In this document: positions 11,626 through 13,284 of the stretch, in pieces | Numbering within the stretch: position 1 is the stretch's first letter | Layout of the letters: each line of letters begins with the position of its first letter | NCBI GenBank assembly: GCA_946624395.1 | Contig: CAMORY010000042.1 | Location: forward strand, 1-25,036 | Source: an uncultured Clostridia bacterium | Lineage (GTDB): Bacteria; Bacillota; Clostridia; Christensenellales; Borkfalkiaceae | Reading direction: 5' to 3' | Length of the DNA: 25,036 nucleotides | The notes under the pieces: generated by a model | What the model was told of the DNA's origin: nothing | The model's database searches: none | What the model saw: the letters and a program-made list of their open reading frames with translations, nothing else | Translations under genes and position numbers: made by a program

Positions 11626-11975
11626 TAAGCGGACCTGTAAGCCGAGTTCTGTCGAGTGCGAACATTTATCTACGAATAACGTCTCCGTTATCCCCCAGCG
11701 ATATTTTATTAAATTCTCTCGGCGGAACTCCCTAAGAGAGAATTTGTCAATCTTGCGTCGGGTGGGGTTTACATTGCCTTTCGCGTTGCCGTGAAAGCGG
11801 TGGGCTCTTACCCCGCCTTTTCAACCTTACCCCTTAAGATAAGGGGCGGTAATTTTCTGTTGCACTTTCCTTAAAGTCGCCTTCACCGGAATTTCTCCGG
11901 CACCCTGTTCCTGAAACGCTCGGACTTTCCTCATTGACGGTTTTTCTCCGTCCCCGCGTTCGCACAGTCCGCTTA
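11626..11975 (-). ncRNA. rnpB: RNase P RNA, bacterial type A
   Basis: Minus strand reads AAGCGGAC...GTCCGCTT (P1), GTGCGAAC/GTTCGCAC (P2), GAGGAAAGTCCG and CAGAACTCGGCTTAC (P4 signatures), AGTGCAACAGAAA, GGTAAGAGC, P6 GGAAC/GTTCC, P16 AAATTCTCTC/GAGAGAATTT. Ends are approximate. Confidence 0.97.
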
Positions 11976-11989
11976 AATAAAGCACATAT

Positions 11990-12018
11990 ATTATATTATG
12001 CTTTTTATATTTTGTCAA
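11990..12018 (-). promoter_or_regulatory. Consensus sigma70/sigmaA promoter of rnpB
   Basis: TTGACA (12018-12013), 17-nt spacer, TATAAT (11995-11990), just upstream of the RNA 5' end. Confidence 0.92.
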
Positions 12019-12023
12019 CACGT

Positions 12024-12054
12024 AAAAAAGGCGGTAAATTTTACCGCCTTTTTT
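12024..12054 (-). terminator. Intrinsic terminator closing the small-ORF transcript and insulating the rnpB promoter
   Basis: AAAAAAGGCGGTAAA-t-TTTACCGCCTTTTTT; symmetric, so a U6 tail exists on both strands. It lies 16 nt after the stop at 12071. Confidence 0.85.
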
Positions 12055-12070
12055 CGATTGAATTGTGAGT

Positions 12071-12181
12071 TTACAAGTCGTCCGCGTCTTGGTCGGGGTC
12101 ATCGTACCTGTTTGAAAAGTCGACACCCGTATAAGACCCGTTATAATCGAACCTGCTTTTCATTTTGCGTGATTTTCGCAT
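12071..12181 (-). CDS. 36-aa small protein MRKSRKMKSRFDYNGSYTGVDFSNRYDDPDQDADDL (not in ORF track)
   Basis: Hand-translated. ATG lies 2 nt after the upstream stop and the ORF is followed by a terminator. The GSYTG...P.QDADDL ending resembles small clostridial hypothetical proteins from my recollection (not searched). An alternative start at Met7 is possible. Confidence 0.75.
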   Translation of the reverse strand: MRKSRKMKSRFDYNGSYTGVDFSNRYDDPDQDADDL

Positions 12182-12183
12182 AA

Positions 12184-12288
12184 TTATTTACTGTTCTTAG
12201 TAGATTTGGTGCCTTTTCCGCCGCAATCCTTGGTGGATTTACGCGTACCGCAGTCTTTTGCCGACTTGGTGTTTTTAACGTCTCTCAT
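12184..12288 (-). CDS. 34-aa basic small protein MRDVKNTKSAKDCGTRKSTKDCGGKGTKSTKNSK (not in ORF track)
   Basis: Hand-translated. Strong AAGGAG RBS 6 nt before ATG; internal KSxKDCG repeat. Confidence 0.75.
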   Translation of the reverse strand: MRDVKNTKSAKDCGTRKSTKDCGGKGTKSTKNSK

Positions 12289-12319
12289 AATTTTCTCCTT
12301 TGTCGTTTGCCGACAAAGA

Positions 12320-12348
12320 TATTATGAGTGAAATTTTGCGGTTTATTC
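12320..12348 (-). promoter_or_regulatory. Putative forespore sigmaG-type promoter for the two small ORFs
   Basis: GAATA (12348-12344), 17 nt, CATAATA (12326-12320); matches the B. subtilis/clostridial sigmaG consensus GHATR-N17/18-CAWWHTA. Confidence 0.65.
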
Positions 12349-13255: not shown

Positions 13256-13284
13256 GTATGCTTTCGGCGGATTTATACAAACTA
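13256..13284 (+). promoter_or_regulatory. Putative sigmaG-type promoter of rubrerythrin
   Basis: GTATG (13256-13260), 17 nt, CAAACTA (13278-13284). Confidence 0.45.

Follow-up and report, generated by a model that had tools for sequence, protein, structure and literature searches.

A conserved pair of small-protein genes with a putative forespore-type promoter ahead of rnpB in uncultured gut Clostridia

Introduction

What is encoded on the minus strand between a proB-like gene and rnpB, the gene of the RNase P RNA, in an uncultured Clostridia bacterium? The DNA in question is a stretch of 25,036 nucleotides (nt) on contig CAMORY010000042.1 (hereafter the window), part of a 784-kb, 58%-complete metagenome-assembled genome (MAG), the organism being known only in this form; all coordinates given below refer to the whole stretch. 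A preliminary description, made from the sequence letters, had proposed that this interval holds an overlooked operon for two micropeptides with a promoter of the type read by sigma-G. We followed up this proposal computationally and found it partly supported, and supported as far as computation goes. In our judgement the locus is probably an independent operon of two coupled cistrons, encoding two small hydrophilic proteins, here called P1 and P2, with a forespore-type promoter (sigma-G, possibly sigma-F) and a terminator before rnpB. Judged by their sequences, P1 and P2 appear to make up two small-protein families that are uncatalogued as a pair, of the same kind as the small spore proteins under sigma-G and broader in distribution than first thought.

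Results

The features of the unit are listed here in reading direction, that is towards rnpB, followed by those of the neighbouring genes.

12348-12344, minus strand: -35 element GAATA of the sigma-G/F type (GHATR), read directly from the sequence; G[ATC]ATA in 20/20 same-genus loci.
12326-12320, minus strand: -10 element CATAATA (CATnnTA), 17 nt after the -35 element; CA..ATA in 20/20 same-genus loci.
12318-12298, minus strand: stem-loop of 8 bp in the 5' untranslated region (free energy -11.3 kcal/mol, z-score -5.1).
12300-12295, minus strand: Shine-Dalgarno (SD) sequence AAGGAG, 6 nt ahead of the P1 ATG.
12288-12184, minus strand: P1, 34 amino acids (aa) plus TAA (ATG at 12288, TAA at 12186-12184).
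12181-12071, minus strand: P2, 36 aa plus TAA (ATG at 12181, TAA at 12073-12071), separated from P1 by 2 nt and without an SD of its own.
About 12056-12024, minus strand: intrinsic terminator with a GC-rich stem between an A-run and a U-run (free energy -19.2 kcal/mol, z-score -5.8).
12126-12295, strandless: contig stretch identical to the window in two metatranscriptome runs (0 mismatches), spanning all of P1 and the P1-P2 junction.
12371: end of the proB-like open reading frame (ORF), upstream of the unit.
12018-11990, minus strand: rnpB promoter, a perfect sigma-70 site (TTGACA-17-TATAAT).
11975-11622, minus strand: rnpB, class A RNase P RNA (RF00010).

Every element of the layout that had been described beforehand (promoter, ribosome-binding site, ORFs for 34 and 36 aa, 2-nt gap and a terminator before the rnpB promoter) is present on the minus strand. 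The charges also came out as described, with P1 at a net charge of about +8 and P2 having a basic N-terminus and an acidic C-terminal half. The statement that the ORF track misses the unit needs one correction for P1, which does not escape gene callers entirely, as the exact sequence of this peptide is already found, unnamed, in a public protein collection.

Both genes are kept in all 20 same-genus loci that were fetched; rnpB lies directly downstream of the unit in 13/13 loci tested, proB lies upstream in most, and every related locus has a strong SD ahead of P1 (AAGGGGG or AAGGAG). The ratio of nonsynonymous to synonymous change (pN/pS), pooled over pairwise comparisons, was 0.26 in frame for a 29-codon core of P2, compared to 1.52 and 1.39 in the shifted frames, and 0.36 in frame for 11 distinct 22-codon P1 genes, compared to 1.51 (+1) and 0.62 (+2). 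The low values in frame relative to the shifted frames indicate that P1 and P2 are both translated and constrained as proteins. The coding-type substitution pattern that had been proposed as a check is thus found in both ORFs. Conservation of the pairing and the promoter, proposed likewise, was observed in 20/20 same-genus loci, but the pairing is not universal, since P2 occurs alone in many lineages.

RNA matching the unit was found in two independent gut metatranscriptomes from different studies, covering 12126-12295 (170 nt, depth 6.5) in the one (X18) and 12140-12295 (156 nt, depth 3.6) in the other (X8). In both RNA runs, the depth was zero over proB, over 11936-12069 and on the rubrerythrin side of the locus, and in DNA runs of similar samples the region is covered throughout. 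With its flanks silent, this RNA is unlikely to stem from DNA carry-over or from read-through out of proB. Read-through as the sole source, which the preliminary description had named as an outcome that would speak against it, was rejected on the zero depth of proB in both runs; the presence of RNA of the unit in libraries lacking proB RNA agrees with the view that it is an expression unit of its own.

A separate observation in the RNA runs concerns the core of rnpB (11797-11907), which showed a very high depth with many loose ends and joints. This depth comes from the many organisms in the samples, whose RNase P RNAs share conserved segments, and is not the expression of this organism.

P1 of the window contains 9 lysines, 2 arginines and two KDCG motifs. 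Over the 20 same-genus loci it is a Lys/Asn/Ser/Thr-rich ORF of 21-37 aa, usually starting with MRD and usually ending in KNCK or KDCK, and in a wider survey its length ranged from 20 to 58 aa (most 20-41) at a mean column identity of 22%. The composition is conserved, and the family alignment has a near-invariant cysteine two residues from the C-terminus. P1 is restricted to part of the range of P2, which elsewhere stands without it. Neither P1 nor P2 gave a Pfam or NCBIfam match at E <= 10, and neither matched the profile of the small, acid-soluble proteins of spores (SASPs) that are of the alpha/beta type (PF00269) or those of the minor SASPs (SspH, SspI, SspK, SspN, SspO, SspP, Tlp and the like), in agreement with the earlier statement that the peptides do not resemble alpha/beta SASPs.

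P2 has the invariant motifs D..GS.TG and, at its extreme C-terminus, P.QDADDL (GSYTG...PVQDADDL). A six-frame search with P2 found it in 26/36 same-genus genomes, with weaker matches in several other families of the order. Of two profile searches, one yielded over 4600 clusters at 90% identity, none of them named or carrying a Pfam domain, and the other, in a library of 1.84 billion proteins, gave 1760 clusters at 50% identity, likewise unnamed and all of 30-118 aa, with the motif at the very end. The named records are from MAGs assigned to Christensenellaceae, Clostridia, Oscillospiraceae, Ruminococcaceae, Acutalibacteraceae, Candidatus Gallimonas, Scatosoma and Faecousia. Oscillospirales-like lineages and several others have P2 without P1; the gene then has an SD and an ATG of its own, and the peptide often bears a helix-like N-terminal extension. 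Among 25 diverse relatives of P2, no Pfam family matched at E <= 10 and no Pfam or NCBIfam family reached even E = 0.01; in a protein atlas, look-ups gave nothing but small clusters without names, scoring below 0.9, and the motifs QDADDL, GSYTGV and PVQDADD retrieved no relevant paper from the full-text literature. The possibility that the motif is a domain of a larger protein was rejected, as the longer matches inspected look like over-extended gene calls. An AlphaFold2 model of P2 was without secondary structure (predicted local distance difference test, pLDDT, 68; predicted template modelling score 0.25), and this lack of regular structure is consistent with a short linear-motif peptide. 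The invariance of the C-terminal motif implies a conserved binding partner.

With both peptides described, it may be asked whether P2 alone is functional and P1 is a leader ORF that delivers ribosomes to the SD-less P2, its lysine-rich sequence being incidental. This would account for the dependence of P2 on the P1 stop in all P1-bearing loci, for the many lineages in which P2 has its own SD and ATG, and for the variable length and low identity of P1. The in-frame purifying selection on P1, which is not seen in its +1 frame, speaks against it, as do the composition, the MRD or MKK N-terminus and the near-invariant cysteine in K[ND]C[KG], which P1 keeps from clade to clade and in each of its three frame relations to P2. 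Moreover, the strongest SD of the unit belongs to P1. We therefore regard a pure leader role of P1 as unlikely.

The promoter was compared to the consensus GHATR-N17/18-CATXHTA of sigma-G; this and the sigma-E and sigma-K consensuses used below are those generally known from Bacillus subtilis. The strict pattern GHATR-N17-CATNHTA has one match in the 25-kb window, namely the P1 promoter GAATA-N17-CATAATA (12348-12320). Upstream of P1, each of the 20/20 same-genus loci has exactly one G[ACT]ATA-N17/18-CAnnnTA, with a spacer of 17 nt in 19/20. The motif lies at -46 to -48 from the P1 ATG, or at -60 to -77 in the subclade of the window, in which a hairpin is inserted. Across the MAG, 42 occurrences of the loose motif were counted, equal to 0.027 per kb per strand. 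The sigma-G fit claimed beforehand thus extends from the consensus match to a position conserved in all 20 loci.

As a positive control for a forespore promoter, we used spoVAC of the same MAG, which is preceded by GTATA-N17-CATATTA. Among 24 same-genus genomes, 19 have G[TA]AT[AG]-N17/18-CAnnnTA at a fixed -119 to -126 from spoVAC, mostly as GTATA or GAATA combined with CATATTA, CAAATTA or CATAATA. In a second clade of higher GC content, which takes in Candidatus Gallimonas MAGs and in which P1 overlaps the stop of a 199-aa rubrerythrin gene, GTATA-N18-CA[ACT]AATA precedes the rubrerythrin gene by about 50 nt in 12/17 rubrerythrin-P1-P2 loci.

If the promoter were read by sigma-E, sigma-K or a housekeeping sigma factor, the peptides would not be forespore products. 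An initial CAT is common to the -10 elements of sigma-E, sigma-K and sigma-G, and GAATA contains ATA as does the sigma-E consensus, both points being general knowledge. However, positions 6-7 of the -10 element are TA and a T at position 8 is not conserved, unlike CATACAnT of sigma-E and CATAnnnTA of sigma-K, and the same motif precedes spoVAC, which belongs to a forespore operon in studied species. A scan for sigma-70 promoters gave no site here, and the CACAATA or CAACATA of relatives are far from TATAAT. The invariant G.ATA and CA..ATA appear to fit sigma-G better than sigma-E or sigma-K, sigma-F being inseparable from sigma-G by sequence, so that reading by another sigma factor seems quite unlikely.

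Two further observations were made around these promoters. The divergent rubrerythrin gene of the window (ORF from 13312) is preceded by GTATG-N17-CAAACTA at 13256-13284 (plus strand), 27 nt before its SD-ATG, which is a looser match to the forespore-type motif. About 8 nt after the spoVAC -10 element lies a conserved short ORF, seen in the MAG itself (contig C72, locus L115, about 1540-1650) and in loci L116-L139. It measures 33 aa in the MAG, starts with MRK, contains LKN.DERE, lacks an SD and overlaps the ATG of spoVAC with its end; possibly it is a micro-ORF of the spoVA operon that lacks a leader.

The unit of the window has the junction TAA-tt-ATG. In most clades, the P2 ATG lies at -4 to +8 of the P1 stop, and the forms TAATG, TAAttATG, TAAATG and ATGA were seen in the window and most clades. 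The nearby start, the lack of an SD for P2, the single promoter and terminator and the RNA contig across the junction together describe a coupled bicistronic operon. The hairpin between the -10 element and the SD is confined to the subclade of the window, with a 3' arm that abuts or runs into the SD; in loci L003, L004 and L007 the sequences of the arms differ and their complementarity is kept.

The P1-bearing loci surveyed are mostly of or near the genus of the window, and they include 16 distinct ones (L008, L011, L012, L014, L015, L017, L019, L030, L033-L036, L039, L049, L058 and L087) with a P2 in the +1 frame that lacks ATG, GTG and TTG. The P2 peptide is strictly conserved in all 16. In eleven of them, an ATT arising from Asn/Asp-Cys codons (xAT TGY) is located 11 nt ahead of the end of the P1 stop, and the other five (L030, L034, L039, L049, L087) have no canonical or near-cognate start beside the P1 stop. 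Public gene calls start these P2 genes far upstream, running through P1 in the +1 frame; translation from such a start was rejected, since this frame has a pN/pS of 1.5 over P1. The candidate routes to P2 in these loci are reinitiation at a non-AUG codon and a +1 frameshift at AAR-UAA.

The start-less genes raise the question of whether P1 and P2 are modules of one protein, joined in many species by a programmed +1 frameshift (AAR-UAA-N), in which case the ATG of the window would be derived. The strict conservation of P2 in all 16 loci, five of which lack even a near-cognate start, is in favour of this. Nevertheless, the ATT of the other 11 would allow non-AUG reinitiation, inspection of sequences drawn from about 6400 family hits showed no case of P1 and P2 fused in frame, and no slippery codon or upstream SD-like stimulator, as known from +1 frameshifting of the prfB type, was recognised in the start-less loci. 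Since, in addition, the +1 frame across P1 is not under selection and P2 of the window has a normal coupled ATG, we consider a single frameshifted protein very unlikely. A cationic toxic peptide with an acidic neutralising partner, as in a toxin-antitoxin-like or antimicrobial pair unrelated to sporulation, would suit two small, tightly coupled products of opposite charge, but is highly improbable for a core gene in a fixed place between proB and rnpB across the genus, without signal peptide, hydrophobic segment or mobile context, with a sporulation-type promoter in common with spoVAC and with P2 widely found without P1.

Since the preliminary description had suggested looking for sigG and spo0A, the MAG was searched for sporulation genes, and Spo0A and the sporulation sigma cascade, including a sigG-like gene, were found. 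The MAG encodes Spo0A and SigE-like and SigK-like proteins as well as an operon of spoIIAA-spoIIAB-sigF followed by spoVAC-spoVAD. An ORF on contig C33 had SigG as its best match, with 329 bits to NF006071 and 313 bits to TIGR02850, both below the curated cut-offs of 372 and 457, respectively. SpoIVA was present in 5/5 and SpoIIIAE in 4/5 genomes of the genus. The genomes of the genus (G000-G036) measure 0.9-2.3 Mb, most of them 1.1-1.7 Mb, and have SpoVAC/D; their sporulation gene set looks pared-down.

Discussion

We return to the interpretation of the locus as a coupled operon for two small proteins of the forespore. A number of observations weigh against it. The RNA evidence consists of low-depth assembled contigs that are strandless and do not give transcript ends, and the contig ends coincide with strain-variable positions at which DNA unitigs also break. 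With a chance expectation of about 0.12 strict sigma-G matches per window, the single match is not significant alone, and its significance derives from its conserved position in 20/20 loci as compared to the background in the MAG. The strict motif was mostly not found by a regular-expression scan at distant standalone P2 loci, so that forespore expression is not to be extended to the whole P2 family. Dependence on sigma-G, the timing and compartment of expression and the localisation of P1 and P2 in the spore would follow from the promoter type and the genomic setting. P1 is of low complexity and hard to align, and in the window KNSK replaces the terminal KNCK, the two internal cysteines being kept. 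An ESMFold2-based prediction of a P1+P2 complex scored 0.00 at a pLDDT of about 40, a score that the tool itself rates as evidence neither way; P1 and P2 may interact, as the preliminary description proposed from their charges.

Further such points come from the sporulation genes. SpoIIP was found in 0/5 genomes of the genus, as was the germination protease GPR (PF03418), and PF00269 was found in 0/37 P1-bearing genomes of the genus, including the MAG. Outside the genus, PF00269 was likewise missing from P1-bearing genomes of the rubrerythrin-P1-P2 clade (0/5) and of other clades (0/5), giving 0/47 P1-bearing genomes in total as compared to 7/11 genomes with P2 only. This anticorrelation of P1 and alpha/beta SASPs is suggestive and itself counts for the interpretation. 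The genomes compared are related, and some are incomplete, so that it is a lead and not a test; since they are not independent, it may reflect one or few ancestral events.

Taking these points into account, the coupled operon could work as follows. During sporulation, RNA polymerase with sigma-G (or sigma-F) would make a short mRNA in the forespore, which in the subclade of the window is probably stabilised by the 5' stem-loop. Ribosomes would load at the strong SD of P1, terminate at its UAA and reinitiate 2 nt further on at the SD-less P2, and production of P2 by reinitiation after P1 would yield the two peptides in a fixed ratio. P1 and P2 would then accumulate as small soluble proteins of the spore core, most likely in the manner of minor SASPs. 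P1 may be a disordered polycation with conserved cysteine(s) and is a candidate for binding to nucleic acid or some other polyanion, and P2 probably docks on a conserved partner with its invariant C-terminal PVQDADDL.

In B. subtilis, the minor SASPs comprise SspG to SspP and Tlp, some of which are encoded in bicistronic sigma-G operons, namely sspN-tlp and sspO-sspP. P1 and P2 resemble them in being tiny hydrophilic products (about 30-50 aa) with a sigma-G-type promoter, a strong SD and no recognisable fold, and the unit, like sspN-tlp and sspO-sspP, comprises two small genes in one short operon with a terminator. They differ in showing no sequence relation, in the lysine-rich character and conserved cysteine of P1 and in the invariant C-terminal motif of P2. 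Furthermore, the P1/P2 family is found in Christensenellales- and Oscillospirales-like gut Clostridia, a group outside the Bacilli. In common with alpha/beta SASPs, the two peptides are small and presumably expressed in the forespore, and the polycationic P1 would suit DNA binding, yet they are half as large, lack a cleavage site of the GPR type and do not match PF00269.

Protamines, with their cross-linking cysteines, and chlamydial Hc1 and Hc2 are Lys/Arg-rich proteins that condense the nucleoid of dormant or developmental cells. By analogy, P1 is very basic, of low complexity and presumably disordered, and its conserved cysteine(s) could form cross-links; it is far shorter and not homologous, and the likeness is an analogy only. 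As for translation, stop-dependent +1 frameshifting is known from prfB and antizyme, and coupled initiation at AUU from infC. The start-less P2 genes of relatives are similar to these cases in that they lie in the +1 frame of P1, have no start codon and abut a UAA stop. Unlike in prfB and antizyme, no slippery site of the CUU-U type and no SD-like stimulator were recognised, and the window uses a plain ATG.

A bolder extension of these comparisons would be that P1 is a replacement protector or condenser of the spore nucleoid in a clade of small-genome gut Clostridia that keeps the sporulation sigma cascade, SpoIVA and SpoVA but in which neither alpha/beta SASP nor GPR was found, with the acidic-tailed P2 as a partner in fixed ratio that perhaps restrains P1, with start-less P2 of many species produced by +1 frameshifting or from AUU, and with a forespore rubrerythrin co-transcribed in some lineages. 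We offer this combination tentatively and think it unlikely as a whole.

The start-less P2 genes provide a natural setting for a clean test between reinitiation at non-AUG codons and +1 frameshifting in Firmicutes, and they expose how gene callers err systematically by prolonging P2 through P1 in the wrong frame. Among the uncatalogued small-protein families of gut Clostridia, that of P2 is in itself one of the larger. Alpha/beta SASPs have been found in 75/76 endospore-forming species, the lone exception being termed enigmatic, and outside Bacilli only alpha/beta-type and Tlp-like SASPs have been reported (Galperin et al. 2022, 10.1101/2022.02.25.481979). Alpha/beta SASPs and GPR are regarded as near-universal in endospore formers, and neither was found here across an uncultured gut lineage that has sporulation sigma factors. 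The unit opens a lead on the replacement of SASPs, together with an unusual translation arrangement in relatives, and, as a conserved and transcribed operon with a forespore-type promoter and a polycationic product, it is a concrete candidate for the protection of DNA in such spores, if they are made.

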